From Lobosporangium transversale (lineage: Eukaryota), in assembly GCF_002105155.1 (NCBI RefSeq), contig NW_019029003.1, positions 248,001 through 312,000 of the forward strand: a DNA stretch of 64,000 nt, given 5' to 3'. Under the pieces are notes generated by a model, which searched no databases, had not been told where the DNA came from, and worked only from the letters and a program-made list of their open reading frames with translations. Position 1 is the stretch's first letter. Every line of letters begins with the position of its first letter. Shown one piece after another: positions 11,414 through 50,012 of the stretch. Made by a program: the position numbers and the translations under genes.

Positions 11414-11536
11414 TTATGCTGTCCCGAGAGCTCCGTGCTTTACCGTTCCAAAAGATAAACGCTGCACTATTTATAAAAAGAGCTGAATCACCCATTATCC
11501 AATTATCCAACACTCTCAATCAACATTTTCTTCAAC

Positions 11537-16584: not shown

Positions 16585-16600
16585 GAATTTTGCGCTGTAC

Positions 16601-22098: not shown

Positions 22099-22362
22099 CC
22101 CCCACCAGCTGCGAAGTTCGGCTCCGCCAAGCCGCAGCTCAAAAAGAAAGAAACTCATTGTGCTGTTTGCGCTTCTACCACCTTGACTCTTGCTACCCCG
22201 CATTTTGGTCATTGCATCATTGTTCTTGTCACCCTTTGGTTCGCCTTGGCATCGACCAAGGAAAATTTTCTTTCTTCGGCCAATCATTTTGATCCGTGAT
22301 CACGCCATTACTTCCACATGATGATGTTGCCATGGACATAAATGTTGGTTCATTCCTCCATT

Positions 22363-22397
<35 letters not shown>

Positions 22398-22461
22398 CTT
22401 TTTTTTTTTTTCATTCGCAACTCCTTCCTCCTTGCCCTGCTTGAACTACTTCATCGTCATC

Positions 22462-23177: not shown

Positions 23178-26100
23178 CTCTCTGTAGGTTCTCAATAAAA
23201 TCATCTTCCCATAATCGTTGCCTTTGAGTTGCGAGCTTGAGGAAGTCTCCATTAATTGTTTCTACCCCATCCTTTGTGCCATAATGCGTTCGACCCGTCT
23301 TGATCCCATATGATCCCTTTTCATTCGCCCAGACTACTTCAAATGGACCTAACCAACGCGGCTCCAGCTTGCGTCCAAAGCCTGTGACGAAATCCAAATT
23401 GAACATGTAAACCCTTGATCCTACTTCGAACGATTGTGGGCGAACACGTCGATCATAGTAACGTTTCATCCTGTCATTGGCATTAAGCTTGCATGAGTAT
23501 GCATACTCACGGATTCCCTCTCTTCTTACGATAAATCTCGCCATGCTTTCTTCTAGGACTACATCGTTCTCTTCCGGTGCCTCTGCTGAAACGAGGAACT
23601 TGTCGTCCGCGAACAGTCGCCGTAACGCTGACTGTCCTGTGTAGCCCATAAGTGCTTCCATTGGCGACACTCCTGTGCTCCTAACGACTCGACAATTCAC
23701 GTCGAATACTGCTTTCGGTAGGAATGCATCCCAATCCTTAGATCCAGCTGGCAGTACTCTCCTCAGTCGCTCCTCGATAAGCTTATTTGTCGCCTCGACC
23801 TGTCCCTGACTTTGCGGATGCCTTGTCGAACCAGTGACGTGCTTGATCCCCCAGAGGTCACAGAAAGTCTTGAATTCGTTACGAAATGCGGGGCCTCCAT
23901 CCGATCTAATCATAACAGGGAGCCCGAACCGACAGATAATCTTCATAAATAGAACAGCTAGGACGCCTTGCGCGCCTTTGTTGGCCACTGCATGTGCTTC
24001 AGTCCACTTGGTGAAGGAATCTGTGAAGACGACTATGGTGGTCATCCCCCTAGGCGTTTCGACTAAGTTCTCAATCAAGTCAACGAAGAGAACTTCAAAT
24101 GGGAACTCGGAGACCGTAGGATGCAACCTGTTATGTTTCACTCGACTTCCAAATTGCTGGCAACGGCCGCAAGACTTGACCCAGTGGAATACATCCCGTC
24201 TCATCGTTGGCCACCAACACACGTCACGAACTGTTGCTAGGGTAGACTCTGCTCCATAGTGACCGCCCTTGTCGTGTGCCTCCTTCAGCACACCTTCGAC
24301 TTCATCCTCAACTACGCACCTCTTCTCTCTGTTGTCGGCATCTCTATACAGTAGGTCACCTTCCTTCGTCAGTCGAAACCTGTATGCCTGTCTCTTGATC
24401 CTCCTCATTTCAACTTTGTCTTCTAACTCCAGTCTCATCTCGGCTAGGTACATGTAGAAGTTCGCGTACCATTGGCTCGCCAGCCACTTTTCTCCTGTGG
24501 ATTCTGCCCTTCGGCTCAGACACTCTGGCACCTCGTCATCGATGTCATCCGTGGCTATTCCTTCCGACATAATGCGACTCATCCCGTCTGCATTGCCGTT
24601 CTTCGTACCTGGTTTGGTCTTAATGACCAGCTCGAATTCCGACAGAATCATCTGCCACCGCGCAGGTCGACCAGTCAGATCAGTCTTGGAAAACAACCAT
24701 TTGAGTGGCGCATGGTCTGTGTAAACGACAACGGACCTACCCAGGATGTAAGGCCGAAACTTCTTGACGGCTATGACAACGGCGAGGCACTCTTGCTCAA
24801 AGGTAGAGTAGTTGCGTTCGGCTCCTTGAAAGGTCTTCGAGTAAAAGTAGACCGGTCTCAACTTACCCTCCTCATCTTCTTGTTCTAGCACTGCGCCCAT
24901 AGCGTATTTGCAGGCGTCACACGAGACCACCCAATCCTTCTCGAAATCTGGAGCCTTAAGTACCGGAGCTTGAATTAACTTGGCTTTGAGACCCTTTACT
25001 GCGGCCACCTGTTCAGGACCCATGGTGAAGCTTGCACCTTTCTTGAGGAGCCTCGTCAGCGGCTCTGCAATCTGAGCGTAGCTTTCGACGAACCTTCGAT
25101 AGTAGCCCGTCAAGCCCAAGAATGCACGTACATCTTCCTTGCTACGTAATGGGGTGAAATTCTTGACCTTGTCAACTTTGTCTGGCATGACCTCAATTCC
25201 ATCTTTGCCGACCACGTGGCCAGTAAACTTCACCTTGTCATACCCGAAATGGAGCTTACTAGTCTTGTACTTGACTCCTCCTGCGCGAGCTGCCGCAAAC
25301 GTATGATCGAGGGCTCTCAAATGCTCTCCCCAGGTCATCGTGCGCACGCACACATCGTCCATGTACGCCTCAAGCACTCTTCCGATAAGGTCTGAGTACA
25401 CTTTTCTAACGAAGCGACTGAAGGTATGTGGCGCGTTCTTGAGCCCAAATGGCATTACCTTGTATGCAAACGTCCCAAAAGGCGTACGGAAGCCAAGATA
25501 CTTGACATGCTCTTTTTTGATGCCAATCACGTAATAACCTTGAAATCCGTCCAGGCTACTGTAGTACTCGAATCCGCCTAAGTTGTCAAGTATTTCCTCG
25601 ATGTTTGGCAGTGGCCAGCTCTCCCTTTCGGTAACCTTATTTAGGCCTATGTATGCGACGCACTTGCGCAAGGATCCGTCTTTCTTAGGAGCAAGACTCA
25701 GCGGCGCGCACCACTCGCTCTCCATCTCTATGATTTTTCCTGCCTTAAGCTCATCATCAACACTCTTCTTAAGGAAGTCAAGCTCCTTCGGCGAGTACCG
25801 TTTGCACCATCCTACGTACACTGGCTTGGCGCCTGGTTGAATGTTGATCTCATGTTCTAAAATAGACGTCACTTCGAGGTCCTCAAGGTTGGTAGTCAGC
25901 CTGTCCTTATTCTTTTCAAGTAACTCCACAATCTGTCCGTATTGCTCATTGGACAAATTTGGGTTGATGTCCACGTTGACTCCGTCAACCGCGAACGGCT
26001 GCCTTTTTACGCGAGCATCGTCATTCTCGCACTGTATCTTGCTAGAGAACACTCTTGCGGTCATCGCCTGCAGATCCGGGTCACCAACCTCTATTGTCTT

Positions 26101-28278
26101 CACTCTCAAGGCTCTGTACCCTGCATCAGCATCGGATTCTTCCGTCTCGTAGATTGATTCGTCATCCTCATAGTCGTCGTACTCATCATCATACTCATCG
26201 CTCTCATCAGACAAGTACGTTGATGTCGTAGGCTGAGGGGTTGAGGCGCGAACATTTAGACCGCCACCAAGGGTGATAGTCCTTCCCTCACTCTCCACGT
26301 AGTACACGATACCGTTGCTCCAATCAGCCTTGGCTTTCAGCGCCTTGAGCCAGTCATCGCCAAGGAGGAAGTCATATGTGCCCTTACAGTCGATCACTCC
26401 CATCGACATTCTCAAGGGGATCCCGGACACATAAATATCGATAGGTCTTGTGCGGCCCGCAAGCTTCTGGAAGGACCCATGGGCTAATAGCACCGCACGA
26501 GTAGCAGGCTCTAACTTCAGTCCGAGTGCGTTTGCCACATGTAGGCCCATCATAGTATGGTCATTGCCTGGATCAATAACGGCGTTGTTGAAGTCTCGTC
26601 CCAAGGCGGTGACGGTCGTGACATCACCCTTGCCACCTTGAACGTTCCTGGCCATAGCTATTGCTGACTGACTCCTCTTAGGCTTGCTTCTTCTTGGAGG
26701 GGCATGGCGGGCCCAGGCCTCGGTAACAGCTGCCTTGAGTTGCACTGCCATCTTTCCACGGTACTTGGAGTGAGTGGCCAAATCAAAATTCAATCCTTCG
26801 ACCGCATCAACGAACACTGGATCAGGAATGACGCGCTTCCTGGTACGCTTTGGCGTCGCATTTGGAGCTTCTGCAACATTATTCTCTCGCCCGTCGACCG
26901 CTCTGTCATCAAAAGTCACTGTCTGGAAGTGGGGGTCCCCAGAAGGTTGCGCACTACTAGTGGATGCCTCAGCCTCCCACTGCATTCCTCGGACAGGTGG
27001 AGTAGTGCCTCTCGTTTCCTCTCTTCGTTGAGACGATGGACCTGCAGGAGTGCCTGTCCTCTCACTGCGACGTCGCTGGGCACCTGTCGAATTTAATCGC
27101 TGTGGCTTAGTCGTGATAAATGATTGGGCGACATTAGTGGCGGAGATTTCTAAACTTTGCACTCTTAGCGAGGAGTTAGTTTGAGTGGCCAATGGGACGC
27201 TATTGGCGCCTGTGGCGGGGCTTCCTTGTTCCTTAGTGCAAACCTTCGAAGTATGGCCTCGCTCGCCACATCGGAAGCATTCCACCAATGGGCAGAACGA
27301 CAAGAGGTGCCCCTCTTGATTACATTTATGGCAGGTTCTACGGGCCATAGGGATAGCCTGCTGACTTCGAACTTCGGCGGGTTGGAGCACGGCATTAGGT
27401 CTAGCCTCCACTCTAATATGCTTGGCCAATTCAGAGGAACCAAACACTCGCCTCGCTACAGCCGGGCTCATTCTTGAGATAGTCTGAGCGATTCGCGCCT
27501 CCGGAGTTCGCTCCTCGGCAGCAAGGGTCCAGGCTCCGAACATGTCTGTTAATTCGTCTACGCTTAATTGATTAACTTTCTCTTTGTCGTCTTTGAAGTC
27601 CGCTAGGAAGCCAGAGTAGTGCGTCCTCGGCACTAGGGTCGATCCAAGCAGAACATTCGTCTCGATTGGTGCAGCATGCTCAGCGTTGCTGCGAGCTATG
27701 ACACGGCTCTCAGTGGTGTCAATGCCCCAACGATTTCCTTCAACCAATTGTGTCACTGATTCGAAGGTTTCCTTCAAGGTCGCAGGCGCTTCTTTGTTCT
27801 TGACCTTGAAAGGATGGTCTTGCCTCAAACCCTTGCAAAATCTGTACGCCAGTAGACGCTCGGTGGCTGTTGGGATCTTGTACGGCTGTGCGTCGCAACC
27901 AGACTCTGGGTCGAGGAGTTCCATGGTAAGTTTCATTCGTTGTACATAGTTGGCTGTCGTCTCATCTTCTCCTTGCTTAATAGAATGCAACTCGTCCAGG
28001 GTGACATCCTGGCTTCTAGGGGTAGAGGCCTCCATGATGAAATCGCTGACGAACTGGCTCCAGGCACCATTCGTCTTGTTTGTCATCCTCCAGCGCCTGA
28101 TCCAGCGTTGGATCTTGCCTGTCGCCTGCCTCTCGACGAACATCAACTTGTTGCTCAGGGTTTCTCCTTCGATAACACCTCCAAAATCGCTGATCCATGT
28201 CGCGGCGGTTAGACCCTCAGCCTCTGCCGACGGCCACTTCGGGATCATGGTAAGAAGAATCGATAAATTGGAAGACAT
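22555..28278 (-). CDS. Gag-Pol polyprotein in a single ORF (Gag, 2 zinc knuckles, protease, RT, RNase H, integrase)
   Basis: CHKCNQEGHLLSFC and CFRCGERGHTSKVC knuckles; AVIDPG protease; LDGFQGY, MPFGLKNAP, YMDD (RT); CDACKYAMGAVL (RNase H); HDKGGH..CGRC, FVDL, SDGG, GQVEATN (integrase). PR-RT-RH-IN order indicates Ty3/gypsy. First ATG at 28278. Confidence 0.96.
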   Translation of the reverse strand: MSSNLSILLTMIPKWPSAEAEGLTAATWISDFGGVIEGETLSNKLMFVERQATGKIQRWIRRWRMTNKTNGAWSQFVSDFIMEASTPRSQDVTLDELHSIKQGEDETTANYVQRMKLTMELLDPESGCDAQPYKIPTATERLLAYRFCKGLRQDHPFKVKNKEAPATLKETFESVTQLVEGNRWGIDTTESRVIARSNAEHAAPIETNVLLGSTLVPRTHYSGFLADFKDDKEKVNQLSVDELTDMFGAWTLAAEERTPEARIAQTISRMSPAVARRVFGSSELAKHIRVEARPNAVLQPAEVRSQQAIPMARRTCHKCNQEGHLLSFCPLVECFRCGERGHTSKVCTKEQGSPATGANSVPLATQTNSSLRVQSLEISATNVAQSFITTKPQRLNSTGAQRRRSERTGTPAGPSSQRREETRGTTPPVRGMQWEAEASTSSAQPSGDPHFQTVTFDDRAVDGRENNVAEAPNATPKRTRKRVIPDPVFVDAVEGLNFDLATHSKYRGKMAVQLKAAVTEAWARHAPPRRSKPKRSQSAIAMARNVQGGKGDVTTVTALGRDFNNAVIDPGNDHTMMGLHVANALGLKLEPATRAVLLAHGSFQKLAGRTRPIDIYVSGIPLRMSMGVIDCKGTYDFLLGDDWLKALKAKADWSNGIVYYVESEGRTITLGGGLNVRASTPQPTTSTYLSDESDEYDDEYDDYEDDESIYETEESDADAGYRALRVKTIEVGDPDLQAMTARVFSSKIQCENDDARVKRQPFAVDGVNVDINPNLSNEQYGQIVELLEKNKDRLTTNLEDLEVTSILEHEINIQPGAKPVYVGWCKRYSPKELDFLKKSVDDELKAGKIIEMESEWCAPLSLAPKKDGSLRKCVAYIGLNKVTERESWPLPNIEEILDNLGGFEYYSSLDGFQGYYVIGIKKEHVKYLGFRTPFGTFAYKVMPFGLKNAPHTFSRFVRKVYSDLIGRVLEAYMDDVCVRTMTWGEHLRALDHTFAAARAGGVKYKTSKLHFGYDKVKFTGHVVGKDGIEVMPDKVDKVKNFTPLRSKEDVRAFLGLTGYYRRFVESYAQIAEPLTRLLKKGASFTMGPEQVAAVKGLKAKLIQAPVLKAPDFEKDWVVSCDACKYAMGAVLEQEDEEGKLRPVYFYSKTFQGAERNYSTFEQECLAVVIAVKKFRPYILGRSVVVYTDHAPLKWLFSKTDLTGRPARWQMILSEFELVIKTKPGTKNGNADGMSRIMSEGIATDDIDDEVPECLSRRAESTGEKWLASQWYANFYMYLAEMRLELEDKVEMRRIKRQAYRFRLTKEGDLLYRDADNREKRCVVEDEVEGVLKEAHDKGGHYGAESTLATVRDVCWWPTMRRDVFHWVKSCGRCQQFGSRVKHNRLHPTVSEFPFEVLFVDLIENLVETPRGMTTIVVFTDSFTKWTEAHAVANKGAQGVLAVLFMKIICRFGLPVMIRSDGGPAFRNEFKTFCDLWGIKHVTGSTRHPQSQGQVEATNKLIEERLRRVLPAGSKDWDAFLPKAVFDVNCRVVRSTGVSPMEALMGYTGQSALRRLFADDKFLVSAEAPEENDVVLEESMARFIVRREGIREYAYSCKLNANDRMKRYYDRRVRPQSFEVGSRVYMFNLDFVTGFGRKLEPRWLGPFEVVWANEKGSYGIKTGRTHYGTKDGVETINGDFLKLATQRQRLWEDDFIENLQRATEKNPHYADTEQPLAPDQLHQPSLGRGREDTANEGTPIQSPHPLSPRTGQAQSRDAPQAQVAPSVNEASREDATGQPSLWRMPPRREEDTSPVRVSQLARLCLERPQLTAYLALERGGNCLGLRRFWRRLLRCKWRNRGRANLVVSKGNHLRRSRRRGSDNDGRSRNNGRSRRRSRSRRSGRGRRSDRRVRSDSRTRLWRRAQRQT

Positions 28279-28315
28279 TGTAGCTGCCACCCCCTGCGTA
28301 GATCACCAGAAATAT

Positions 28316-28679
28316 TGTTGCAAAATTTAGGGGCAGATGTGGTAGGAGATTTAGGTCGTTTTGGTGGATTATGAAGCCGGTCACTTCCAGCTGCAGATAG
28401 ATAAATAATTCTAACACAATAAAAGAACACACACACTACTCAAAGACTGGACGAGAACAGTCAGTACTCAAATGGCTCTTGTGTAAAAATAAGGAACCTT
28501 TAATGATCTATGGCTACTAACGACGAACGTTGTGAGGGCTCTTTACCTGGACGAGAACAGTCAGTACTCAAATGGCTCTTGTGTAAAAATAAGGAACAAG
28601 GAGCCAGATTTTCCTGAGCTGTTGCTCGTTAAATAGTTGGTGGCGAACCCTCTACACGTGACTAAAACTAAAACCAACA
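28316..28679 (-). repeat. 5' LTR (364 bp)
   Basis: Direct repeat of 21735-22098. Confidence 0.96.
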
Positions 28680-32970: not shown

Positions 32971-33030
32971 AATTAACTCACAATTCGTCTTTTTTTTTTT
33001 TTTATTTTTTTTATTTTTTTATTTTTTTTT

Positions 33031-33157
33031 TTTATTTTCAATTTTATTTTCAATTTTATTTTCAATTTTATTTTCAATTTTATTTTCAATTTTATTTTCA
33101 ATTTTATTTTCAATTTTATTTTCAATTTTATTTTCAATTTTATTTTCAATTTTATTT
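33031..33157. repeat. Tandem repeat (TTTATTTTCAAT) x10
   Basis: Ten 12-bp units following a T-rich tract. Confidence 0.95.
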
Positions 33158-33363
33158 TAATGACACATCTTTTAATATAGTCCATGCCATTAAAAAACGG
33201 GATAGGCCATCTAGACCAAGGATTATTGTAAAAGAACAAGAAATACATAAGTGCTTAGAAATAAGTAAATTAACCAAAGAAAGTATTGTCAAGCCAATAC
33301 TTACAACTTTTCAAGACAGAGGTCTTTTAGAACCAAGTCATATTTGTAGTAGATCAAATCCTA

Positions 33364-36300
33364 TTATTGCTGCCGGCTTGATGTCTTTCCTCCTCTTGGG
33401 AGCAACAAAGGCCCTTTCGATGGTCTTGATCCCTCTATTCCTCCTCCTTCATGTGAATATTTCCTTTTTCTGGTCCCACTACTACTACAACCACCGCTAC
33501 CATCGCTACCACCATCGCTGCCACTACTGCTAGAAGCTTGATCTTGAATTCCTCCATATATTTTGCAGCTCGTTTTTGCAGCCTCACCTGTGACCCACAG
33601 ACCCTTGGAATATTTTCAGCACCAGCAGCAACCCGATCAAAGTATGTTTTACAATTCCGACAGTACTTGTGTCGATAAGGAGCATTCTCCAGTAAAGTAT
33701 CACATTGAGGTGACGGACATTTGGCAGATCTGTAGTATTTGTAACAGCCTAAAATGGAGTAATCTGGAGACTTTGCCTATTCGATCCCGATTGAATACTC
33801 CATATTAAAAAAGACCCATAATTAAATGTCATTGAACATGAGATTCACCTTTTCAACAAGCTTCTTCGTCAATTTCCAATGCTTCGATACTCGCACTCGA
33901 TTAATCTTGAATGATCCAAGTCTAATACAGATCACCGCAATCATATTGGCGCCTCTTGCATTACTTCCACCTACAAGCTTCAGAATTGCCTTGATCACAT
34001 AATCAACGCATCCATCCTGTGCTGTTCTACTGTCCCAGATGCTGCCTAAGTGCATATGAGCATCAATGCCTACATACGTATATAAAGAGGCTGTTTATAA
34101 TCCTTGGCGCTACAGTCTTGGTATATACTACAGCCCATTTAGTATTCTTAATACAGCATGAAAAACCATCCTTGATCCCTGATCTAATCATTGATAAAGA
34201 AAAGATAAAGGCTCTTAGAAAAGAAGGCTATTTCCTATTTAGGGCTAAGAAAAGCTTTGACACAAATAAGAATACCGCCAAGGATAGTTATTGTCCTATG
34301 CCAGAAATGAAAGTGTTTCCAAATATATCGTACAATATCGAAAATCATGGCCTTTTGCTGAACGGCAGATGAGTATTTTCGATGAAACCATAGAATAATG
34401 GTTCACTGACGATGTCATCGCCTTGATCCTAGTGGGCAACGCCCATAATAATATGCTTACGCTCACCGCTAAAAAGGATGAACGGGGTAACGAACCCTAT
34501 GGCGTGTATGCCCTGATCTACGAGCACTAAACAAATATCTTCCGAATGACAGTTATCCTTTACCCTTGATACCTGGTACCATTGCGCGTTTAGCAGGCCA
34601 TTTGATATTTACCACGATTGATCTATCGTAGGCTTACCATCGATTACTTGTCAATACTGACGATCAGCCTCTAGCTGCCTTCATGCACAGAGGAGTACAA
34701 TAAATGTTTAAAAAAGCATCGTTTGGTCTGAAACCCTTGTCTTGTCTTTTCTAGAGGGTCATGTCGCGAATTCTAGGGCCATTTGCCGATAATTTCATTG
34801 ATGATACTGTAGTGTCCTCGACATGCCGAACATGTGCGCATTTGATTGACCGGCTGTACGAAGCCAACTTAATTATAAATCACAACAAGTATCATTCCTA
34901 CAGTACGCAAATTATTGGTTTGCACGGCAGAAGCCCTGATCCTACTAAATTTATAAATACACGTGAGTGAGAAGAGCAAACAATTTTATCTCGGCGCGTT
35001 CAATTTCTACCGAGAGAACATTCCCCTCTTCAGTGAAGTTTCGGCACCATTAGACGCACTTCGCGACCGCACTGACCCTTTTGTATTAAATGGCAAGCAG
35101 CGACAGGCTTTTCAGTCTTTAAAAGAGCTGCTTACTCATACACCGGTAATTATTTCTGGACCTTAGTAAACCCTTCTGCGTGGTAACAGACGCATCCGAT
35201 GTTGGCGTTGGAGCAGTCTTGTACCAGGAATCTCAAAATTAATTATGTACCCTTTATGTGACGCTCTTTCCAAGAGCGAGAGCGGAAATATAGCGCCACT
35301 AGAAAGGAACTATTGGGAATAGTATTTGTGGGGCAGGCATTTTCACCGATATACACATCACCATGCATTGATGTATATCCATTCACAATTAAACTTGAAT
35401 GCAACAATGATCAATTGGCAAGAAACTATTGTTCTTTTACGGCCCATTAGAGGCCTGGAATACTGAATATCTTGCCCAATGCATTGCCACGATTATTCCC
35501 ACCTGCTGTCCTGTTCAAACAGAAAGCTACAAAAGGATAGGACATAGCTATAGCATATATGCATATCTTACAGAATAAAGAGGCCTCAAGGACAAATTGC
35601 TCATGGAAAAGAGAAATAATATATCGCATAATGTACATGCAATGAGCCACATTGGCATAGATTCCATGATAAAATCCATCCATAATCGAGATAAAACCTG
35701 GCTAAAGCTTGCTGAGGATTGCTCGAACTTCATTAAAAGATGTCGTGAATGCTAACGAATGAATATTTCTAGAAAAGGGTATCATCTTAAAACGATCCAT
35801 GCTCAGCTACCAGGAGAACACATGGCAATTGATCTTGCAGGTCCATTCGTTGAGCCTGAGGATAAAATTTTTTACTTGTCCTCGTAAATGTCTGCACAGG
35901 ATTTGTTTTGCTGGATGTAATCCCTGACAAAGCAGCTTACACCGCAGCGAAAACACTATTCAAGTGTCATGCAGTATTTGTCCAAATAGAAAGGCTATGA
36001 GCTATGAGCATTCCGATAACAAAAAAGAACATTTTATTGAGAGACAATGCATAAGCGAGTATTGGGTAGACTTCTATGCCAAGTGCAAGCCTTCTATCGA
36101 TAAACCAACTAATCCTTCCATGCGACGTACTCGTACGCGCAAACAACGATAATCATGTACAGAATAGCATACGACGACAACACCTAACATCAATAGAATA
36201 AACACGATAAGTATAATAGCCATCAATAATAATAAAGCAAACGAATCTTTATCGCGGAACTCTATGCGTTGCGCATGTATTCCTGCAGGAGTTCGTTGGT

Positions 36301-38308
36301 TTTCTGCGTACTCTCCGAAGAAAGCTCTATTGCTTCAGACACCATCTTCAAAGTATTGGCATTCTTGGCTGCAGTTTCTGCTTGCAGTTTAACTATATCT
36401 AACAGTATTTGAGTATTCGAAGGTTGAATGGCTTGTGAGCCTCTACTTCTTTTTTGGTTTGATGTATCATAGGCAAGAAGAGTAAGGGTAAGGCCATTTG
36501 TGAGGAATGATGTTCGTAGTTTCCTCCTAGGGCCAGTATCATCAGATTGCAGTCCAACGTCCTTGTATCCTTTCAAGGAAAACAGCTCTTGCAACAATAT
36601 CCCTTTGTCATTAAGAAGCTTGTCCTCTGCAACCCCCTTGGTACTCATATTTAATTCCAACAATTGGACTATTTCCTCTCGAACTGTAGGGTTAGACCAT
36701 AATATATCCAGGAGGCAGGCTTCCGTTAAGCAGAGAGACCGAGGCGAGAAAGCGGATGTAGGGAAATCCAGATATTTTTTGGCAGTAGCATTTTGCTCAA
36801 AAAAGAATTGGATGGAACTTCTTCCATCGTCTGGAATATCTATGTCAAACTAAATATTATATTGAAGAAATGATTAGGAACATTTCTATGAACGTATTAT
36901 AAGATAACTTCAAAATATGATATTTACCTGCGCATTCCGATAGTGAGACCTTAGCGCTGTTTGAACAGGGACCATGACCATCCGAGACGACTTGCCGATC
37001 ACCAAATCGGGATAGATCTGGTTTAAAGGACCAAGTCCTGTTTTTGCATAGAAGTATTCGTATACTTTGAGCTGGGACGGCTTGACTACATTCCCTTCGC
37101 CTTTTTTCTTCACATCCTAGATAATGGATTCATCAGTCCGTGATACAACAACGCAGCAAGGCCGTAAATAAAGTCCTTGCTATCAAGAACTTCATCTAGG
37201 GGTTGTGGGAGATCAGCTGGATTGGATGGCCCAGTGGTAAGAAGGCTATCGATCCAAAAGGCGCAGGCCCAGAAAGCTCGAATCCGTGCCTCATTCAACA
37301 TTTTGATAAATGGTTGAATGAGCCCTTGAATTGTAGCAGCAAGTTGCTCGGAATTGAGATTGGGATCGGAAGTAGAGTTCAACTTGGCAACTATATACAT
37401 CTTTAACGTGCCCAGAGTTAATGCAACAGTGGATCCTCGGTAGTAGTATCCTTCACTTTCCTGGTTTTATCAGTCTTTCTGATATACTTGGCCTTCCCTT
37501 TGTTCTTCTTTTTTTTCTTCTTTTCCTCCTTAACCTCCTCTTCTTTCTCATCCTCTTTCTTTTCCTTTTTTTTCTTGGGCTTTCTTTGATGGTCGGAGCT
37601 GACGGGACAGTTATGTTATTTACAGTTGGTTAGGTCATATTTTTTGGGGAAGAGTTCTCTTTTCTCAGTAGGGAAAACGGGTAGGTAGTGATCCGGCTTT
37701 GCGCGTTTAGGTTTAAAGAATCTAGTTACGAAGCAATAATGTCAAGTAGATGGCTTTTTTTTTTGTATATGCCTTGAAAAATGTTCGTTTGTAGGAGCTT
37801 ACCTGGGTTGAGGTTGGTACTTAGCGGATATCGCTGCCAAGGTCCTGTCATGGTAATGAAGGAACCTTTCAGCGGTTGGTTGTTTCAAAGCCTGCGTTTG
37901 AATCCCACCGAAGAAAATATTGATTGAATGGACAAATTGGCCTTCTGACTTGGTCTTCATGTTGGCTATGAGTGTATCGAGCTTTGCATCGGCTATTGTA
38001 CGCTTAACGTCTCGGGCTCTATAAGCGCGGACTTTTTCATTGGAGCGAGGCTCATCAATGTGTATCGCCACTATGGTAAGAGGACCAAAGATCTTTAGAA
38101 TGATATTAGCCATAGCATGGTCACAGACAGTGAAAGAACTCGGCTGGTTGAGTTTCCTTAGGATGATATTGTGTATATCGCAGTGGAAAGTGCCAAGCAG
38201 ATCCAACTCAAAAGATGAATCGGGTTCGGCAGCAAGCTCATGTACATCAATCTCCTTTGGTAGCAGATCTCTCCTTGAAAGGTATGAATAGAGACCTTCT
38301 ATACCCAC
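33364..38308 (-). pseudogene. Decayed Fanzor1/TnpB-like RuvC-zinc-finger gene with XPG/PIN-like N-terminus, interrupted by a gypsy relic
   Basis: N-terminus (V/M)GIEGLYSYL..ELDLLGTF..IHIDEPRSNEK. Middle: ALTLGTL, LTEACLLDILW, RTSFLTNGLTLTLLAYD. C-terminus: WDSRTAQ..LKLVGGS..VICIRLGSF, intron 33777-33848, then GCYKYYRSAKCPSPQC..KYCRNCKTYFDRVAAGAENI, read as a degenerate E-Y-x-TS-x-CP..C..CxxC..RD-xxx-A-x-NI. RuvC-I segment not found. Confidence 0.72.
34150..35990 (+). pseudogene. Degenerate Ty3/gypsy pol fragment (RT, RNase H, integrase start)
   Basis: FTTIDLS*AYHR, SFGLKP, NFIDD, FYLGAFNFYR, VTDASDVGVGAVLYQ, YSATRKELLGIVF, HMAIDLAGPF. Many stops and frameshifts; no LTR pair seen; boundaries approximate. 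Confidence 0.85.
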
Positions 38309-38911
38309 CTTGAGAAAGTATACTATAAAACAGTGCAAGCAATGTTAGTTTATGCAACGATAGATTGAAGTCGAAGTTGTTTGAGCAGATATGGTTTACT
38401 TTTAAGTAAAGATTGTAATCTGTGAGAGTGTGAGGATGTAGGAGTATGAGGTGAGAGGATAGGAGGGTGAGAGATAAATGTCGTTGTATCAGCGTGAAAT
38501 GAGAGAGAGAAAAGAAGAAAGAGAGAGGGGCAGGGTGTATTTGTAGGTGTATGAAAGAGAGCAAAACAAAAGGCTGAGCAGCAATGCAATTCGGATCGCA
38601 TTAAAAAAAAAACAACGGAGAAACAATTATTTGACTACCAACAAGTTGCAAGGTGCGCAAAGAAGTGGAAAAAAGATGTGCACTGGAGACAGAAAAAAAA
38701 ATCGCTTCCTTCCTTATTCCTTCGCCGATTCCTTCTTTCTTAACGATCTCTATATCCTTTTCCCCTCGTTCAGGGATGTTAATAGCCTCTCACTCTTCAA
38801 TTCTTCAATAACATTTACTCATTGTTTCTCAATCAAAACATCCTTAACATTTCAACATTACATTTGCAATCTAAACTTAAAAGATTCAATTCTTTCACAC
38901 GAAACATGAAC

Positions 38912-41900
38912 ATGGTAAAACCATATCCGCCAAAGCAGAGATGAATTATTTGTGGGGATGATGACGAAGAAGAGGCAGCCATCGCGAATTCTCAACCTCT
39001 ATCCTTGCCAAAACAGACGCGACTTGATCGCGAGAAAGAGAGCGATAAATGGACTGCTATTGTAAAGTTTCCGCCTTCATTGCCAGAGTTAGAGTCACCC
39101 CCTATTACAACCAGAACAGGCTCTGCCGGTACCAAAAAAACGTGGTCGCCTCCGAAAGATAGAATCAACACATGCACCACGTCGACAAAGCCATACCACT
39201 CCGCCAGTAGCCCTAGAAAGACAACCTAAAAAGTTACTCTTATTACAAGGTTTGCCACAGGAACCGCCTAATTCAAAGGAGTCATTGTGCACGTGTCTCA
39301 ACTATCCAACCTCTATCCATGCCACAGCCACCACTGCTACAGGAGGTAGACGACATTGTTGGCTCATCTTCTGAGAACGTCGTCAACAGAGAGCTAGACG
39401 ATCCAATCGATCAGGAGAAAGATGACATTGTCGAGTCGGAGCCTGGCTTCTATTCTATTATTATTTTAATACTCTAACCCTGTTCCGTAATTTTACTTTT
39501 TTTTTTTTTTTTTTTTTTTTTCTGCTAGATATTCTGCAACAAGCATTTCAAGCCTGAAGATGAACGTGATGATCCTGAGGAGGCAAATACACCGCTTGAG
39601 TTTTTATTCATAGAAAAGTCCTTAGTCGCTCCAGAGCATTCGGTTCCTTTCATGAAAGAGGAATGTGATAGAAAGTTGACGAAACATGTCGTGGAAGGGC
39701 AAACTGTCTGAGCTCAAATTGACATTACAAATAAGGCGGAGAAGGACGATAAAAGTACTTCATCATTGAGAGACGGTAAGCTAGTGGTTTACTTTTGAAG
39801 CGCTCAAACTACACACCTAGACACTTAGGACTTGGTGCATATTGGTGCTCACATCCACGCTTTTTATTTCATTTTATTTGTTTTGGTGAAGTCCTCGCCA
39901 CTGAGGCCTTAGACCTAGAAGGACGCAGGGTTATTGAGGTGCCTGTATCTAATTCTCTGCCTCAAGCTGCCTTGGATACGATCACAGACCTTTAGAGAGT
40001 CCAAGCTAGCAAAGGATGGATTACCTGTTGCTCCCCGCGTGAAAACATGGATATAGCGATTATGCTAAAAAATTATAGATTTAGCCTTGTATATGATCAG
40101 TTACAGCCAGATCTCACCCGGCGAGTGGACTGTCCATTGAGAAATGCCTATAGTCCCAAACAATTTGTCCAAATGCTGATGACACTCTGGCGCGATCCAA
40201 TCGGACTTAATAGAAGAAGCGCCAATATTAGGGATCACTTCTCTATGGCAATTCATCATCAAATGATGCTTCGTGATGAAGACATCCGTCACCTTCGGTT
40301 CTCTGAGTGTTTCCACAAAACACTTGATGGTCCTCAGACGGCTTACCGAAAGATATCCAGCTTGATATTTCGTATACAGCAAGGAGAAGCTAATAAGAGC
40401 GGTGCAAGCTGGTACTCTTGTGCTGTCCGACATGTTGATGTTTGACAGTGCGGTTTCTCAGCATTTGCGTTTTACATGTTTTATCTTTGGCAGTCGAAGT
40501 TCAGGTTGGACAAAGCAATGCTTCCAAACTTTGACGATCCAGATTGGACCCAGTTCCACGTCCTTGCAAGCCGTACCGATCCAAAGTATGGGGTTTCCTC
40601 TAGTACTCAGATAGGTGCTGTCAAGCGGTTGTACGATAAGGTTGGCTTTACATCAACCAAAAAACTCATAGCGGGCGGCATGCCGGATCAATGCATGCGC
40701 AGGCGCATGGCGCATCTTACAAGGGCACCTATGCAGGTGGAAGGGCTTCGAGGCAAAATCAAGTGGATATAAGCTATTTGGCAAAAATCCCAGTTAGATG
40801 TGCTTTAGTTATGGCTGGCCTTAAAGACAAAGACAACACTCTAACGCGCAACAAAGTAAGCCCTTCGATCGAACTACAGCGTAACAAAGTAAGCCCTTCG
40901 GTCGAACTACAGTGCCTTATCTTCCCATGGATCGAGAAGGCCTATGGCAAACCCGGAACAGAATCCTGGAAATTTTGGCAAAGGGAATGTGAGGATGAAA
41001 TGGCAGAAGTTGATGAGAACGAGGTGAAAGCTGTAGAGAGGATGAGCATCCCTCTGGAGGAAGAGGCTATAGCTTCAAGTGGAAAACGAAAGAAGAAAAA
41101 GGCGGAAGCTACAGTGGGTCAGCAACGGGGAAACAAAGTCGCTCTTCCGAACACTGAAATCCCAGACTCTTTGGAGCCAGTTGACGAACAAGAGCAACAG
41201 CAAGAGAAAGAGCCTGCATCTGCCTCAGCTACTGACACCCGTTGCATGTATAGTACCAAGGACGTTTATAAGCGCTTATTCCTCAAGCTATTAGTCCGTT
41301 GCCGAAGGATAATATCGCAGGATGCAGCTGCGCTATTGTATTATGGTCAAAAAAAACTGCCTCCTCAAAAGCGAAGTATTTCAGACTCGATTCTTTGGGG
41401 ATTTTGCCAAAGAAGTAGTTGAGGTTCTTAAAAAGAAAGAGGAGGTTGATCCTCTGCAGCAATGTGAAGCAGCCATGTCAATAATTGCAAGTGAACTTCG
41501 ATCCATAAAAGAGACGACATTTGCTGACGAGCTGCTATCACCAAGGGAATCCATAGATAATTTTGGCGATCAACTGCAGGAAAGAAATACATGACCTTTG
41601 TAAAACTTTATCAAAAAACGCACAGCAAGGATCATATGAATCCAGGAGTCCCAATTGCCGCACACTATCCCCCTCATCCTCAGCAACAACTTAGTGTCCA
41701 ACCATATATCCAACCATCGTTTCAATCACCTCTCCAACTGCCTCCTCATCCATTATATTATCAGCCAGCAACGTATTCATATCCGTATCAAATGCCAATA
41801 CCTGGATCTTCTTCATCGTATCTGAGGCCATCTCTAAGCTCCAGGAACTCTATCAGATCCTACTTCATGGTAGAGCCAAAGTCAAGGAAGCCAAGGACGC

Positions 41901-42090
41901 GGGAGAGGAAGAGTGCAATGCCAACTACCTTTGGAGCAACAGCAGAAGCAGCAACCAAGAAAGCTACCTCTACCCCCGCTACCAAACCTACAGCACCGCT
42001 TTCGACTGGATTGACAGGTAACTTATTTCTGTTGTATGAATGAATGGTTTGGTATAATAGGGAAGCGATTACCGACCCGTTGCGATTGGC
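38912..42090 (+). pseudogene. Crypton-type (NDC10-II-like) tyrosine recombinase, decayed
   Basis: HHQMMLRDEDIR (catalytic Arg region); QGEANKSG..RHVDV*QCGFSAFAFY (stop 40443-40445); KTHSGRHAG (HxxR, in a shifted frame near 40660-40690); SYLAKIP..MAG (candidate Tyr); PSVELQCLIFPWIE; FLKLLVRCRRIISQDAA. Ends approximate. Confidence 0.78.
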
Positions 42091-42786
42091 AACCATTTCA
42101 TATGATGCTTTTACTCTTTTTTTTTTTTTATTTAACGGAGATCCATGAATTAAAATAAATATATTTTCCTTTCGTCCTCGTTACCTGTAATGACTTTGGC
42201 ATATTTCACAGTCAAAGGTGAGACTGAGTAGAAGTAGAGCGCGTTGTGTATGTGTTTAAAACACATACATAAAAAAAAGGATAGAAGAATGAAAAGTAAA
42301 AGACAATAAAAAATAAAAATAAAAAGTAAGAGTTAATAGACAATAGGCATAAGGAATAAGAGTGAGAATGAACAGGCCAGGGATGTGTTTGACAGGGAGT
42401 CTGATTAATGTCATTTCAATTGAATTAACCATGAAATTGTTTAATTTTCGCTGCGCGATCCTTCCAAGAAAGCGATTTCCGGTGATAGTTGTAAAATACA
42501 ATCATCTTATTGGCTCTAGTTTTATAATAGGGATTATCTTGAATGGACATTAAACGCATGTATTCAGGCCCCGTGGCTTTTTTTGTAAAGCCTACTAAGC
42601 ACACAGCCACGAATCCTTACGACGCGTTAGGCTCGTCACCAGTCTGTATGGCTTATGTGCATTACACTAACCCTCACTGATAGGCTGGATCCAAACTCCA
42701 AAAGGACCTTTGCTGAGTCCAGGATGAAGAGAGACAAGCCGACAGTAGCAATAGGATTTAATTTACTAGAAATATGAAACCACTCG

Positions 42787-45700
42787 AGATTTACTAGTAT
42801 CATTCATGTAAATACAGCCACGCAATATGCCCCTTGTGCTTAAGAACCATAAAGGACTCAGTTTTGTTCATACACTGTAGGTTTATTTGTTGCTTTTGCT
42901 CATGTCATTCAAGTATTTAAATTTCATAGTTCAGCCGTCGTTCCTTCAGTGTCCATCATATTTTCGTCGTCACCACCTACTTTCTGGTTTCTAGTTAGTT
43001 TCTTCGTAAGTGGATCTGCTCCTCCAGGAATAAAGTCTCCTAAAGTCAATGCGATACTCTGACCACCGGAGCCTGCTTCACACAACTCGTCAGCCAACGC
43101 TATATACCGCGCCTCTAGGGCCTTGACATCTTCGGCCTCTGCCAAAACCTTGCCTGCAAACCTTAGCACCACCTGACCCATCCATTTCTTCAAGAACAAA
43201 GCTGTCATTTTCTCAATCATCTGAGCCTCACGCTGACCTTCAATCCGAGCCTCTTCACGGACCTCATGCAATAAATATTCGGCCATGTCCAGAGCCAGAG
43301 ACAGAGGCGGAGCCCAGATATAGGTGAAATCATCCGCACCTGGCTCTCGAGCTACATTGAAGGCCGCCGCTAACTGTGTTGCTGCTTTCTCAGCCGTTAA
43401 TGTAGCTCCTGGTGCTGTCAGTGCCAGTCGCATAAACTCGAGACACACAAACGGACGCATCAGCACAAACTTGGCCTTCCCAGCAAGAGTCTCAACCGCA
43501 CTTGCACGGTAACCTTCAAGAAGAGCCGGCGATACACTCTTCTGTGCATTGGCTTGGACAGCTATTTGACCACCCATCAGTTCAGATATAGTCAAAAGAA
43601 CAATGAGAGAGAGAGAGAGAGAGTAAAGAATGAATGTTAGATTTGCAGGCTTCTCTCCAGTTATGTGAGTCAAGAAAAGAGAAATGTAGTGGGACTGAGG
43701 GGATAAGAGGGAGAGAGGTAAAGATAGAGATAGAGATGCAGAGAGAGGGCCAAATCCTTCAAGACTAACCTTGGTCCAGCTTCTTCAAGTATTCAGAGCT
43801 GCCTACAGTTTTTTCCCAGTAAGCATCCAGCTCCTTAAGTGTCTTCGGGTTATTGTTGAGGTGCTCTACCTCCATTGCCAAATCCGAATTGCCTCGGAAT
43901 GGAAACCATTGGCCACGAGCGATATTCAAAGGGAGGTCTTGTGGCTGCATGAATGGAGTCAGATCCAGAGCATCCAGGCTGCCATTCAGGAAGGCTTCGA
44001 GGATTAAGACGCTTGCTGGTGAAATGCCATAGCCGCTACTGAACGCCTCAGATCCACTTCCCATGCCTGTAGTATTCCCTAAGGCAATGGCTTGAGGTCC
44101 AAATTCAACAAGTTCATCAAGAGGCTTGCGTGTAGATATACTAACAGGGATTGTGCCTCTTTCGATATCGATTACAAGGAGCTCATGAAGCATTGGGCCG
44201 ACTTCTTTGGGGAAAGCGGCACACATCAAAGAAGTATCAGCTAACAGCATACGGTGGACAATAGCAGTGTCTGGCCCGTTCTTTCCTGCTGTTTGCGCTC
44301 GCTGAACCAATGTTGAAAACGCTTCTTGCATAGATGTGATTTGCTCCATCGTCAACTGGCCATTATTTGCTTCACGCACAAGAGCTAGCTCACCTAGGAG
44401 GATAGTTGAGATCATATCTCGTTTCATTGAATAGAAGCTGGTATTCTCTGCAGTCGCCAGTCGATCCATAAATGCAGTAATCTCCTTCAGCGGAAAGACC
44501 CCAATGGCATTCGTCAGAATATGCAAGGCGACAAGGTCTCCATGAACCCAGTCGGCCAATTCTTCGCTAGGCTCCATGAGAGCCTTACCAAGAGTTCTCT
44601 TGAGCTCTGCGTTACTCCACCCCTTGGGAAGGAGCGACAATGTAATCCACGAAAGGATAATAGCTTCATTATTTATAGATAGGAACCTATTGCTCAAGTT
44701 GGCCATACGTATAAGCAATCGAAGGACCTCTTGGTTAATCTGTGCTTGCGTCATATTTTCCTGAGGGTTAAACAGTGCAATCTCTCTTCCCAAGATTGTC
44801 ACCCATAAAACCGATTCCATTCCTTGAGAGAGAAGGGGGCGAACTGGATCCATTTCATCGCCGGTGAAGGCACCAGCCTTCTTAGCAGCATCAGAATTAT
44901 AAAGTGTAAAGTTGGCGCTCAAATGAAGGCTTTCAATCCGATCGAGCACTAGGTTGCGGAAGCCACGTCGTCGGCTCTTGTCTAGGAATACGTCCACTTG
45001 ATCCTGTATATAACCAATGAGCTCTTCCCAGCATTTGTTACCGTTGTTATTTTTGATATTGGCCTTGCTGCTATCGTCACCGACTTGAGCGTTCGCTAAT
45101 TTACCTGCAATCTCCACGCTACTGCAGCGAGCGATACCAAGAGCAAATAGCCTCCAAAGTGAATATGGGTCATCATCTAGGGGTACCTTGGCCGCTTCTT
45201 GCCGCCATTCTTTAGCAAAGTGTAAAGCATACTTGAAGGTTATCCACCCACTCTCCTGAGCAAGCATTTGCAACGTCAGGACTCTGACTTCAATTAGATC
45301 TTTGTCCCTTGCACTGTCGCCTTCAGGAACAGCAGTCATAGGGATAAGGATATCGCTGACATAACGATCGATAATACGTTCAGGGACGGTTTCCTTGGAC
45401 AAAGCCCCCAATGCTGTGTTAATACAAGGAGTACGGTGAATACAGCCAGAGTCCACAAAAGGGACAGGTAATGGTTTGCTGTAGTTGTATGAAGGGGACA
45501 CTGCAAGAAGGACCAATGCAACCCCTGATTTTTTATGATAGGTAGACTGAGCGACAGTAGATAAAGTAGTCCAGATCCACTCTGTGGTGGCTTTATAGCG
45601 CTCCTCTCTGCCTTCTGATCCGGTAAGTAAGCGAATCAGTGATTGCAAGGTAACCACTCTGACATCTTGATGGAGGTCCCGACGTGCTAACAGATCCTCA

Positions 45701-48700
45701 ATCAGCGAGCTGACTTTTGGATCCACCAGCAGAGACATACTCGACAGTACCAAACGAATGCCTTCCTTCTGAACAGTGACCTTTTGTTGGCGCTGTCCAG
45801 AGGATGGGAAAAGCGGTATGATAAAGTCAGGGATTTGCTGAACAGGGACACACTTGAGCGCATTCTCAACTGCATGAATGGATGTACGAGCGACATGAGA
45901 TTGAAGGTAGACTGGAGCCATGAGGAGCTGAAGTGTGCTTGCGGGTTCTCCCAGGGTCGGAAGGAACATCAGCAATGCCTCGACAATGCGTGATGGTAAA
46001 GATGGAGTGGTCAGAGCATTGGCAACATCTTCCACTGTTGTTGTCGACATACTCATAAAGGCCTTAGCATGCTGAACACGGGATTGGAATGGAGTCGAGC
46101 TGTTGGTCATTCCTGACAAGTGTCTGGCCTTGAGCATCTCACTTTGCTGTGGGTTTAGCTCAAAGGGGATCTTCACAAATAAAAGGTCCCATGGATCTGG
46201 GGTCTCTATTTGATTGAATAGTCCAGGAATACTCTTGGTCATCGACAGATGGTCATTTGTCAAAAGATCCGGCCGCTGTGCGCAAACATAATCTAGGACA
46301 GCAGGGAGGTGAATAGCTGATGGAGATTTGTTCAAGAGTCCGACCATGAGTTGCTCGTATCGATTATGGTCACGCTTGCCGCCTGGGAACACACACTCAT
46401 TCACACGTGCCTTTACTTCCCCTTCATATGCAGTTGATCCTAATCGAAGATCGCGGTACAGTGTGTACCATGACAGATTGCCAAGATTCTTTTGAACCCA
46501 CTCTTCCTGTGTATAGATCTCACGTACATGCTGGATATAGTTCGATGAACTTGATAGGAACTCGTCGTCTTTCCAGTTTAGGACAGTATCCTTTCCGAAT
46601 ACTAAAGTCGGAGCACTTGCTAGGACATCCAAGGTCTCATGCAGATACTCCACAAGCGTCGGTGAATTCTTCCATCGCCATCCTAGATCATCATGAAGGC
46701 TATAGCAAATGTTTTGCCAGAAGATCTTTTGGGACGACTTGAACGCTTCAACAGAGTCACTTGTAATATCTGGGGCCATTAGTGCCTTCACAGTGAGCCA
46801 GCGGCTATGGTAAGCATTGATCTTGGCCTGCACATATGTCTCCTCCTGTCCTTCTTCGATAAGGTGTAGACCCCATGCACCACCCTCAGTTTTGTATGTC
46901 TCATTTTCTTTGGCAATTGCCTTTCGTCTAGCAATCTCATGTTGCTCATTGCGTTCATGGACATCCTGGCCGTAAGTAGGGTTGCTAAAGGACAGGTCAA
47001 AGTACTTAAAAGCATTTACATCGCCATGGACATTAACCACTCGTCGCCAGCGGATCTCTGTTCCCATTTGGAAGAATGGGTGAGAGTCATTGTTTGCGAA
47101 GCGCGAAAGAGCGGCATCGCCAATAGAGTCCAAAAACCTTGTAATCTGTGAAACTGGTGTGATAGCAGCCGAATTCTAATAAAGTTGATGGTGTTAGAAA
47201 GACATATATGTCATTTCCTTGCTCAAGGATATTGCTATCTTTTCTTTCCCTTCTTTCCTGCAAAAGAAAAAGAAATATGAAATATGTGCTGTTACCTGTG
47301 CGTCCATGGCGAGGTACAATGCGGATAGCTCATTAGCTTGCTGCAGATCTGCGTCATCTAGGTATTGCCTCGGGATAATATGGTCGCGTAGGAACAGACT
47401 TGGCGCAAAAGCCATGAGGTTGGGCTGAATTTCATTGCGGATCCTTTGCGATGATAAGGTTTCCAAAAATAAAAATTAAAAAAAAACGGGTTACAGGTTA
47501 GAAAAAACCAGGAGCACATAAAGGTTTAGTTCATCATAGCTTGGAAGACTGAGACTATGTAACTCACTTGGGAATCAGCCATTTCAGTGTTATGAGCCAT
47601 TGGTTCACATCTTTTGTCATACGAGTTGCTTTCATAATAGCAGTAAGCCATTTAAGACGATCCTCAAAAGACGGCTTGGTCGTTTCCTTGACAAGCTGGG
47701 CCCGTACTTCTGGGACTTGGATATCGACAAAAGATGCCCAGTTGGATAGGTTGTCACCCAAATCCACTACTTTCTCTCTCCTGTCATAGAACACAAGTGG
47801 ACGGACGATCTGTTGACGGAGTTCAGCATTGGTGCAGAGAGCCTCCAACATCGGGTATACAGATACGCCTTGGTCCTTCTCGATCAAAGGCTTAAAACTG
47901 GGTAGTGCAATGATCCATTGGACTACCTCATCGCGCTGAGCTTGTGTCAAGCTTGGGCCCAGCTTGCTAAAGTGCTCGATCCATGTAGAGTCCAGCTGAA
48001 TCATTGCTTTTCCTGTCCTATTCAGGCAGTTAGCGACACAAGTCTGGAACACAGCAGAGTTGTCCCAAGAGGGAACAGAACTAAAGGGTTGCACAAAGGC
48101 GTCATCAGATAGAGCATAGACGCTTTTATCTGAAGGTGCAAGGACAGCCAAGAGATCTTCAACTATGGAGATTACAGCACTATCCTTGCGTGTCTTGGTT
48201 TTGAACATTGGCTGGAGCTGATCGAAGATAGTTTCAGCCAGTGGAGGGAAGCGCTTTATATGTGACAGTTTGTGAGCTTCCCAGTAGTTGGAGGACTGTC
48301 GAAACAATGGATTGAATATCTTCCTGCAAAGACGAACATTGACCGCATCATCATCCACATCTTGGATACGGAGAGCTTCCAAGGCAGGAGAGAAAAGCTC
48401 TGGGATGAGCTCTCGTAATGTCTGGTGGAACTTCTGAGTTGAATCAACACGATCCTTGTGTACAGAGCAGTTGACGACACGATGCACCAGGTTGTCTACA
48501 CCTTTCACCACGAACTTGAGCACATTATTCAGACGCCTCACCCGTTGGTTGCCTTGTGTTTTAGAGCGAATCTTGAACTCATCTTGTTCAAGTACTTTCA
48601 AGGCAGCGCGTACCAGCCGAGTGACAGCAGGGCCGCGGAGGCAACTGAACAGCTGAGGGATTTGGTCCTTCTTGAGGAGTTCTCCTTGACCAACATTGAT

Positions 48701-50012
48701 CAGATCAAGAACGTACTTTTCTAACATTGCCTCGTGACGAGGATGATGGCTCCAATGGTTCTGCGCCTTTCTGGTTTCATAAAGTTCGCTGGGGATATGG
48801 GCAGAGTACACCAGATTGGAACCACGAGCTTGATACGATGTCTGTTGAAGGATACGGAATGTTCTCTCGGCATCGTATTGAACAAAGAGAAGGATGTATT
48901 CTTTGATTAATGGAGCTAGCATAGGAGTCCTGACCTCGGGCTTGGCTTCATCCCAAGGGAACAATGGCGGATAGGTCTCTTGGAGGGTCAAGATAATGTC
49001 TTTGATTGACTCGCCGGGATCACAAGCGCCTTTTACATTTTGGTTGGCAACATCAATGATCTTGCTATATGCTTTCCACACTTTCTCACGCTCATATTCT
49101 GTTGCCTTTGCAAGTGCTTGTTTGAATCGAGTCGTGATGGGCTCTTTCTTATCAGCCTTATTCGCCTGTAGTGATAGAAGACAAAGAGGCAAGCTGAATC
49201 AGTTAATCATTGACTAGTTACAATAGTGCAGTATGAACAGCCATCTCAAGTATCTACAGCTTACATACCGCGCGTGGCTTTCTCAAGATGTCATTGGCAA
49301 GGCCCTTGCGCTTCTGCTTGACCAAAGATGCTACAAGGGCATCGCGAACAGCAGGTGCAGTATCGGTCGTAGCAGCAAGGATTTCGACGTCCGAAGCAAA
49401 AGTGGCAATGCACTGGATCAATCGCTTTTTGCCCACTTGGTATGGATGGTTCAAATCAGCCAGCAAGAAGGCAATTGCTTCCTTGCAACCCTTCTGAGCT
49501 AAGGTCATGGCAATGATTTGACCAACCTGACGTTGTACGTAGCGAGATGATGCATTGGTCTGTGGAAACTGCAGAGAGACATCGTCGGCTTCAGGAGATG
49601 GATTTCCACCGTCAGCATACAAGGTGGTTTCATCCTGCGGAGGCCGCTGGATAGGAATAGAGAGAATGGTGGGAACAGTCTTGAGGAGTTCAGGTAGGAG
49701 AGAGAGGAGTGCTTCTTTATGGGTTTTGATGAGATTCTGGATATAGGTATTGCGATGGCGGTAGCCTACAGTGTGGATAGTCTGCATCAATTCATGTTCT
49801 GAAGCAGGCAAAGCAGGTGCCTGTGGCACGTCTTTGGCAGCAACCATTGATGAAGGTGGATTCACGGAGAAAAAGAATTAGCTGAATGAGTGAATGAATG
49901 AATAAAGGATTCAGATGATTCTCCTTCTACGTCCTGAGCAGAAGGAAGTGAGAGAAGAAAGAAAGAAGAAAGCCCATAAGTGTTGCCAGGAAAAAACTAC
50001 TGAGCCCCCAGT
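42787..50012. repeat. 7.2-kb direct segmental repeat, copy B
   Basis: Matches 2949-10168. Confidence 0.97.
42924..49847 (-). CDS. Uncharacterised ~2120-aa protein, copy B, 5 exons
   Basis: Same exon structure as 3071-10003 (49847-49269, 49165-47568, 47443-47296, 47175-43770, 43561-42924). Two extra residues in exon 4; stop codon 5 codons earlier. Confidence 0.88.

Follow-up and report, generated by a model that had tools for sequence, protein, structure and literature searches.

A decayed Crypton-like recombinase gene and a PIN-Fanzor gene in head-to-head arrangement in Lobosporangium transversale

This analysis followed up a pair of divergent, decayed genes in a 64-kb stretch of Lobosporangium transversale DNA (the window, meaning the whole stretch analysed). 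A PIN-Fanzor gene on the minus strand lies head-to-head with a Crypton-like tyrosine recombinase (YR) gene on the plus strand. The region is probably what is left of a single Crypton-like DNA transposon, now dead, which carried a mobile PIN-Fanzor module and was later broken by a gypsy insertion. The evidence directly supports the identities of the two genes, the fusion of PIN and Fanzor in intact relatives, the splicing of the PIN exon, and the reappearance of the head-to-head arrangement in a distant family. The window copy itself is a dead relic, and the interest rests in the family to which it belongs. An association of Crypton and Fanzor is already on record in the available portions of PMC3627910, PMC10530073, PMC10711439 and PMC13565253, as in the element MCi-2A and in Repbase; it is the PIN fusion and the conserved YR/PIN layout that were not found described in the papers searched.

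The minus-strand PIN-Fanzor gene and its family

On the minus strand, a PIN nuclease of the FEN1/EXO1 type is joined in one gene to a Fanzor1 body. The preliminary description had placed a Fanzor-like gene on this strand from about 38308, and the PIN exon does begin at 38308, with Fanzor pieces extending down to 33435. It had also called both genes heavily decayed, and stops, frameshifts and deletions are indeed present in PIN-Fanzor and YR alike. Exon 1 (37803..38308) specifies the FEN1/XPG-type PIN nuclease and is 80% identical over aligned columns to protein P0001, which matches XPG/FEN1 structures (weakly by sequence, best E 5e-4) and the XPG_I and XPG_N clusters of the Atlas (at 0.95). 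P0001 keeps seven acidic residues, D36, D85, E171, D173, D190, D192 and D243, as do the young PIN copies, and the arch K and R are present alongside them; we take all of these to correspond to residues in the human FEN1 numbering. In the window, the start codon has decayed to GTG (other copies have T at 38308 on the plus strand, giving ATG), and an internal deletion of 172 aa relative to P0001, near 37955, has removed five of the seven acidic residues.

Exon 1 is followed by a GT..AG intron (37722..37802) and then by exon 2 (36928..37721), comprising a basic linker and the start of the Fanzor body, where the profile match is weak at 37661-37209 (E 6e-4) and strong from 36993. A stop at 37616-37618 interrupts exon 2, as do frameshifts near 37431 and near 37115, and other copies differ at all three sites. 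A second GT..AG intron is predicted at 36850..36927 from its splice sites; a contig of sequencing run X5 stops at its donor, position 36928, and no joint was among those listed. Exon 3 (36406..36849) specifies the Fanzor REC/WED region with a TNG motif (35% identity to P0140, E 4e-12; profile E 1.4e-22). The remaining Fanzor piece (33435..34040) holds RuvC-II, the zinc finger and RuvC-III, is 38% identical to P0140 (E 8e-25), and includes an intron predicted from splice sites at 33777-33848; P0140 and P0029 align to window pieces 36819-36376 and 34037-33558. The two parts are separated by a decayed Ty3/gypsy pol relic on the plus strand together with other DNA (34040..36405), a later insertion or replacement identified from Pfam matches (RT_RNaseH, E 4e-7; Integrase_H2C2, E 1.5e-5), from single-copy contig depth, and from other copies that join directly across it (34035-36408 and 34040-36416). 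This 2.4-kb stretch stands where the RuvC-I segment should be, and with that segment missing, the catalytic E reading K and the catalytic D reading V, the RuvC D-E-D triad is not kept. No tblastn match linked the relic to the intact gypsy element of the window (21731-28679). Beyond the last Fanzor piece lies a 3' trailer (33160..33434, minus strand) that is common to multi-copy contigs in all four runs and is covered by deep X5 contigs; a guide (omega) RNA would be expected here, as would one end of the element.

Splicing was seen in run X5, which was read as RNA-like, a guess as to its kind that rests on a splice joint and on the lack of cover over 34133-35737. In one X5 contig, otherwise identical to the window, 81 nt bounded by CT..AC are spliced out between 37721 and 37803; another X5 contig, deeper and divergent, has an intact PIN with the intron removed at the same position. 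In divergent copies the stop site differs, and insertions of 22 nt and 10 nt occur at the two frameshifts, so that by arithmetic a single frame runs from PIN to the WED exon. Run X5 also holds contigs identical to the window YR.

Relatives of the gene form a large Mortierellaceae family, with 515 representatives at E 1e-3 or better in a full HMMER search. The P0001 cluster comprises 13 proteins, of which the other 12 are 97-100% identical to P0001; 12 proteins of the cluster come from one assembly, where they stand for 14 loci, and 12 of the 13 members are 341 aa long and end at the intron donor. Among the best 150 of the 515 representatives, 16 are at least 700 aa long, named members coming from Linnemannia, Dissophora, Entomortierella, Actinomortierella, Mortierella and Benniella. 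Among the matches listed, PIN runs on into the Fanzor body in all 16 (13 of which helped build the Fanzor-body profile, while three did not), and the RuvC D/E/D residues are kept in five, with the zinc finger following the E after about six residues. The Cas12f1-like_TNB domain scored above cut-off in four of five relatives scanned. A structure model of one relative, P0074, from a 16-row alignment, was weak overall (pLDDT 61, pTM 0.39), though far better over PIN than over Fanzor; it matched EXO1 and FEN1 at E about 1e-9, and SpuFz (PDB 8gkh/9cey) at E 1.5e-6 over 734 columns, with a TM of 0.31 by target and an rmsd of 23. The Atlas clusters nearest to the P0001 PIN head were giant-virus XPG-like and Pox G5 proteins, which is a lead only, and viral contigs searched with P0001, A5 and A6 gave no relative.

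The tyrosine recombinase, the spacer and the element ends

On the plus strand, the preliminary description had noted a Crypton/NDC10-like recombinase near 38912. ATG codons are present at 38906 and 38912, and the decayed NDC10_II/Crypton-like YR gene occupies 38906..42043, with a core at 39891-41350 matching P0202 (E 2e-50) and P0182 (E 3e-48). The motifs LRDEDIR (LRxEDxR), HSGR and SYL survive in its broken frames. NDC10_II itself scored E 0.0024 on one window fragment, and 6e-18 and 7e-17 on the relatives P0202 and P0182, the latter lying near the NDC10_II and phage-integrase clusters of the Atlas. The GCR1_C domain gave no match in three window fragments or in P0182, P0196 and P0202, and the YR is therefore filed as Crypton-like rather than as CryptonF; GCR1_C may lie in an unannotated last exon. 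The YR-like proteins first found in Linnemannia lack the H and Y, as read by eye, and look domesticated.

The divergent spacer between the PIN start and the YR ATG (38309..38905) measures about 600 bp, the length previously given for it, and is likely to be a bidirectional promoter. Multi-copy homology on the PIN side reaches about 38593 within the spacer, and in one contig about 38676, while homology to a second YR copy begins at 38879, leaving about 200 unique bases between the two zones. No PIN piece was found within 1530 nt upstream of that second YR copy among the matches listed.

The contigs revealed no termini, empty site or circle junction. Repeats of at least 7 nt linking three candidate end zones, whether direct or inverted, were no longer than those of controls; the direct repeats of CryptonF are 4-6 bp. 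Beyond the YR, a multi-copy segment (42600..42786) is possibly the other element end, or else an unrelated repeat: the bin 42479-42780 showed about 11-12x single-copy depth in three DNA runs, a single-copy contig ends at 42627, and no contig was seen linking the segment to the element. A family of derivatives with internal deletions would be expected to have a far end that is multi-copy in this way. The predicted fold of 42560-42800 is not unusual (z -1.2), nor did the trailer give a guide RNA signal, either from its fold (z 0.35) or from a comparison of eight trailers from distant families, which do not align.

Several features surround these zones. Directly past the Fanzor trailer, at 32990-33158, a T-rich tract and a (TTTTATTTTCAA)n array may mark or hide the element end. 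A 7.2-kb direct duplication (2949-10168 and 42787-50012, 98.5% identical) starts right after the multi-copy segment and holds a large gene, with no Pfam match in the two ORFs scanned; examination of the duplication at 2949/42787 revealed no empty site. The window is rich in transposons, including a pogo-like element. At 10365-17650 there is an element with terminal inverted repeats of about 1055 bp (99%) and a DDE_1 transposase (15079-16584). The intact Ty3/gypsy at 21731-28679 has 368-bp LTRs that are 99.7% identical and a 1915-aa open frame, and a PIF1 helicase fragment at 20282-21295 is probably a Helitron remnant.

Recurrence of the divergent layout

Scanning metagenomes with PIN patterns turned up 26 loci, and in two of these, L006 and L021, a YR match was found on the opposite strand upstream of PIN (L006, YR minus 1741-216 and PIN plus 5094; L021, YR minus 1124-416 and PIN plus 3557). 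Recurrence of this layout had been put forward earlier as the check on the pairing, and the two genes do co-occur. The L006 YR keeps R, HxxR, W and Y; in L021 only the first R was found. Across YR, spacer and PIN the two loci are colinear, with 82-87% identity. They are copies of one family and represent one lineage; both contig names begin with the same prefix, and the loci might be orthologous. Their PINs are 24-30% identical to the L. transversale family, and since that of L006 is only 24% identical to the window PIN, this is not the same insertion. The L006 sequence runs into the linker of the fusion before the contig ends, short of the Fanzor body, and the L021 PIN is truncated, so we infer the Fanzor half of both from family membership. 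The YR-PIN spacers of these loci are 2-3 kb long, which exceeds both the roughly 600 bp of the window and the 1530 nt available upstream of the second YR copy, and include a conserved stretch (L006:2350-3500 and L021:1780-2870) with open frames on both strands that is absent from the window spacer and gave no Pfam or stored-protein match.

Altogether three YR matches were found, one in the window and two among the 26 loci, each of them head-to-head with a PIN gene; neither the loci (139 kb) nor the window gave any other. The pairing exceeds chance, on a background (the rest of the window and what remains of 123 kb of family loci once 33.7 kb of upstream 5-kb zones are taken away) too small for a firm probability. 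With L025 set aside as a distant outlier, five family loci extend at least 2.4 kb upstream, which is how far from PIN the YR core appeared in L006 and L021; these two carry YR and the other three do not. At L010, which belongs to another branch, a MULE transposase (185-2960; FAR1, MULE and SWIM pieces) lies head-to-head about 220 bp from the PIN gene, and weak MULE remnants occur at L007:206-367 (E 3e-5) and L011:100-216 (E 0.005); the window has no MULE match. At L009 and L017, PIN is head-to-head with host genes (Rad4/XPC-like and DEAD-box helicase, respectively), with no transposase upstream. A single two-gene element, as the preliminary description proposed, is supported in part: the layout recurs, but the pairing is not fixed, given the MULE at L010, the host genes at L009 and L017, and the copies in L. 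transversale that do not carry this YR.

A tree reconstruction (a quick method without bootstrap, covering 24 of the 26 loci, as L024 and L026 were too short, and with P0001 standing in for the omitted window copy) placed the YR-linked PINs (P0001, L006, L021) in one 23-row clade with an SH-aLRT of 96, and the three long-upstream loci without YR outside it. The clustering was as low in 11 of 500 shuffles, a figure inflated by near-copies. P0167 was carried in the tree as an outgroup because of its 'Rad2' name, yet is a family member.

Within L. transversale, summed contig depth, which is not a copy number, was 8-40x single copy on most PIN-Fanzor bins versus 1-2x on the YR, and most PIN-Fanzor copies are without this YR at 80% identity or above. 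The PIN-Fanzor bin 33491-33811 is also near 2x, probably because the likeness of the young family falls below 80% at this place, and a more diverged YR is therefore possible. Word-limited searches recovered no YR protein of L. transversale (0 of 3; 0 of 24). The two window genes have diverged from other copies about equally, PIN by 44 differences over 361 nt and YR by 62, with gaps besides, over 556 nt.

Competing explanations, working model and known systems

The PIN-Fanzor gene behaves as a passenger module, spreading without this YR and riding beside MULE transposases in another branch. Explanations other than a single Crypton-like transposon are less likely. A non-autonomous PIN-Fanzor element and a Crypton could be chance neighbours in a transposon-rich stretch, perhaps with a shared target preference, with L006/L021 a second accident that was later duplicated. 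The very different contig depths of the two genes, the gap between the end of multi-copy homology (38593-38676) and the start of YR homology (38879), the neighbouring pogo-like element, gypsy and Helitron-like helicase remnant, and the repetition of the layout in only one independent lineage would all suit such a history. It is nevertheless unlikely, because the same orientation and YR subfamily recur in a lineage with 24-30% PIN identity, the YR-linked PINs cluster in one clade, the two genes show similar divergence, and about 145 kb of other sequence contains no background YR. It is improbable that the YR was itself the passenger of a composite element mobilized in trans by another enzyme such as a MULE, a situation left open for MCi-2A and shown for MarCry-1_FO. 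The MULE at L010 and the weak remnants at L007 and L011 point in that direction, as do the spread of the young family without this YR and the truncated Crypton gene and 11-12 bp target site duplications (TSDs) of MCi-2A, as given in the accessible text of PMC3627910; against it, the window has neither a MULE match nor terminal inverted repeats above chance, and the YR catalytic motifs are retained.

The fusion has a rival of its own, that PIN and Fanzor are separate proteins in L. transversale, as the annotation of young copies as 341-aa PIN-only genes would have it, with PIN serving the YR in junction or flap processing. Those annotations account for 12 of 13 cluster members, ending at the intron donor, and no single X5 contig spans the whole gene from PIN to RuvC. 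This explanation has very little probability, however, as X5 contigs lack the intron in the divergent multi-copy form as well as in the window copy, the differences at the stop and frameshifts by arithmetic give one frame, and all 16 of the long relatives listed, 13 of them profile-building, continue into the Fanzor body.

If the region is a single Crypton-like transposon with a PIN-Fanzor module, the YR would excise the element and leave no scar, and the Fanzor half, guided by RNA from the 3' end of the element and its flank, would cut the regenerated empty site. The PIN half would then chew back the 5' ends at the cut, and repair would copy the element back from the sister chromatid or from another nucleus (restorative homing). 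That PIN acts in 5' resection is suggested by the FEN1/EXO1 fold and the conserved acidic residues; flap or R-loop processing and guide trimming are alternative roles. By analogy, and tentatively, this Mortierellaceae transposon clade could be a eukaryotic counterpart of IS607, combining scarless YR excision with a guided nuclease whose own FEN1/EXO1-type 5' nuclease resects the cut and forces homologous copy-back. If so, a guided enzyme that both cuts and resects would exist in nature, and several genomes would carry young, intact copies of it. The reason for which eukaryotic transposons retain Fanzor is an open question, and Crypton transposition has never been shown experimentally, according to the available part of PMC13565253, where it is also argued that scarless excision favours Fanzor retention. 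A YR/Fanzor layout that recurs, and whose members include young, multi-copy ones, allows both matters to be tested in a single system, and a second conserved nuclease on the chain of a guided nuclease bears on how guided breaks might be steered into homologous repair.

In the accessible text of PMC3627910, the Fanzor1 element MCi-2A of Mucor circinelloides is likewise fungal, has a Crypton YR gene and a large, spliced Fanzor1 (1375 aa), has no terminal inverted repeats, and has a Fanzor module common to copies with variable other ends. It differs in its C-terminally truncated YR, in its 11-12 bp TSDs, and in the first ~630 residues of its Fanzor, which, read by eye, have no PIN motif at the start. 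The portions available of PMC10432273, PMC10711439 and PMC10530073 allow a comparison with Fanzor1 and SpuFz, which PIN-Fanzor resembles in the fold match of P0074, the E just before the zinc finger and the Cas12f1-like_TNB domain; it differs in having a FEN1/EXO1-type head of about 330 aa, in its length (1050-1360 aa versus about 600-800 aa), and in reading TNG where TDG is described. Like CryptonF, as far as PMC3212892 could be consulted, the candidate element of the window has a fungal host, an NDC10_II-like YR with R, HxxR and Y, no terminal inverted repeats above chance and ends that are hard to see, but GCR1_C was not found in the window or three long relatives, and the second gene is PIN-Fanzor. 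The pairing of a scarless recombinase with an RNA-guided RuvC nuclease in the working model is that of IS607/IS605 TnpA-TnpB restorative homing (PMC13565253, in part), except that here the recombinase is of the tyrosine type rather than serine or HUH, the genes are eukaryotic and spliced, there is an extra 5' nuclease domain, and the activity is a prediction. The PIN head shares with FEN1, EXO1 and XPG the fold match, the seven acidic residues and the arch K and R, but is multi-copy, transposon-borne and fused to Fanzor.

The main texts of the Fanzor papers, as far as available, do not mention a PIN-Fanzor fusion or a PIN, XPG or FEN1 head, which Repbase or subscription and preprint-supplement sources may describe. 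Searches for Fanzor with PIN domain, XPG, flap endonuclease or Mortierella, and for Crypton with Mortierella or FEN-family, gave no relevant title among the matches listed. Table S2 of PMC10711439, in the part available, includes Mortierella and Linnemannia proteins, one of them visibly starting with a PIN motif that goes unremarked. Among the relatives recovered here, P0166, encoded on a 4013-nt contig, is a PIN-Fanzor of 1131 aa on a long branch, with all three RuvC motifs present.
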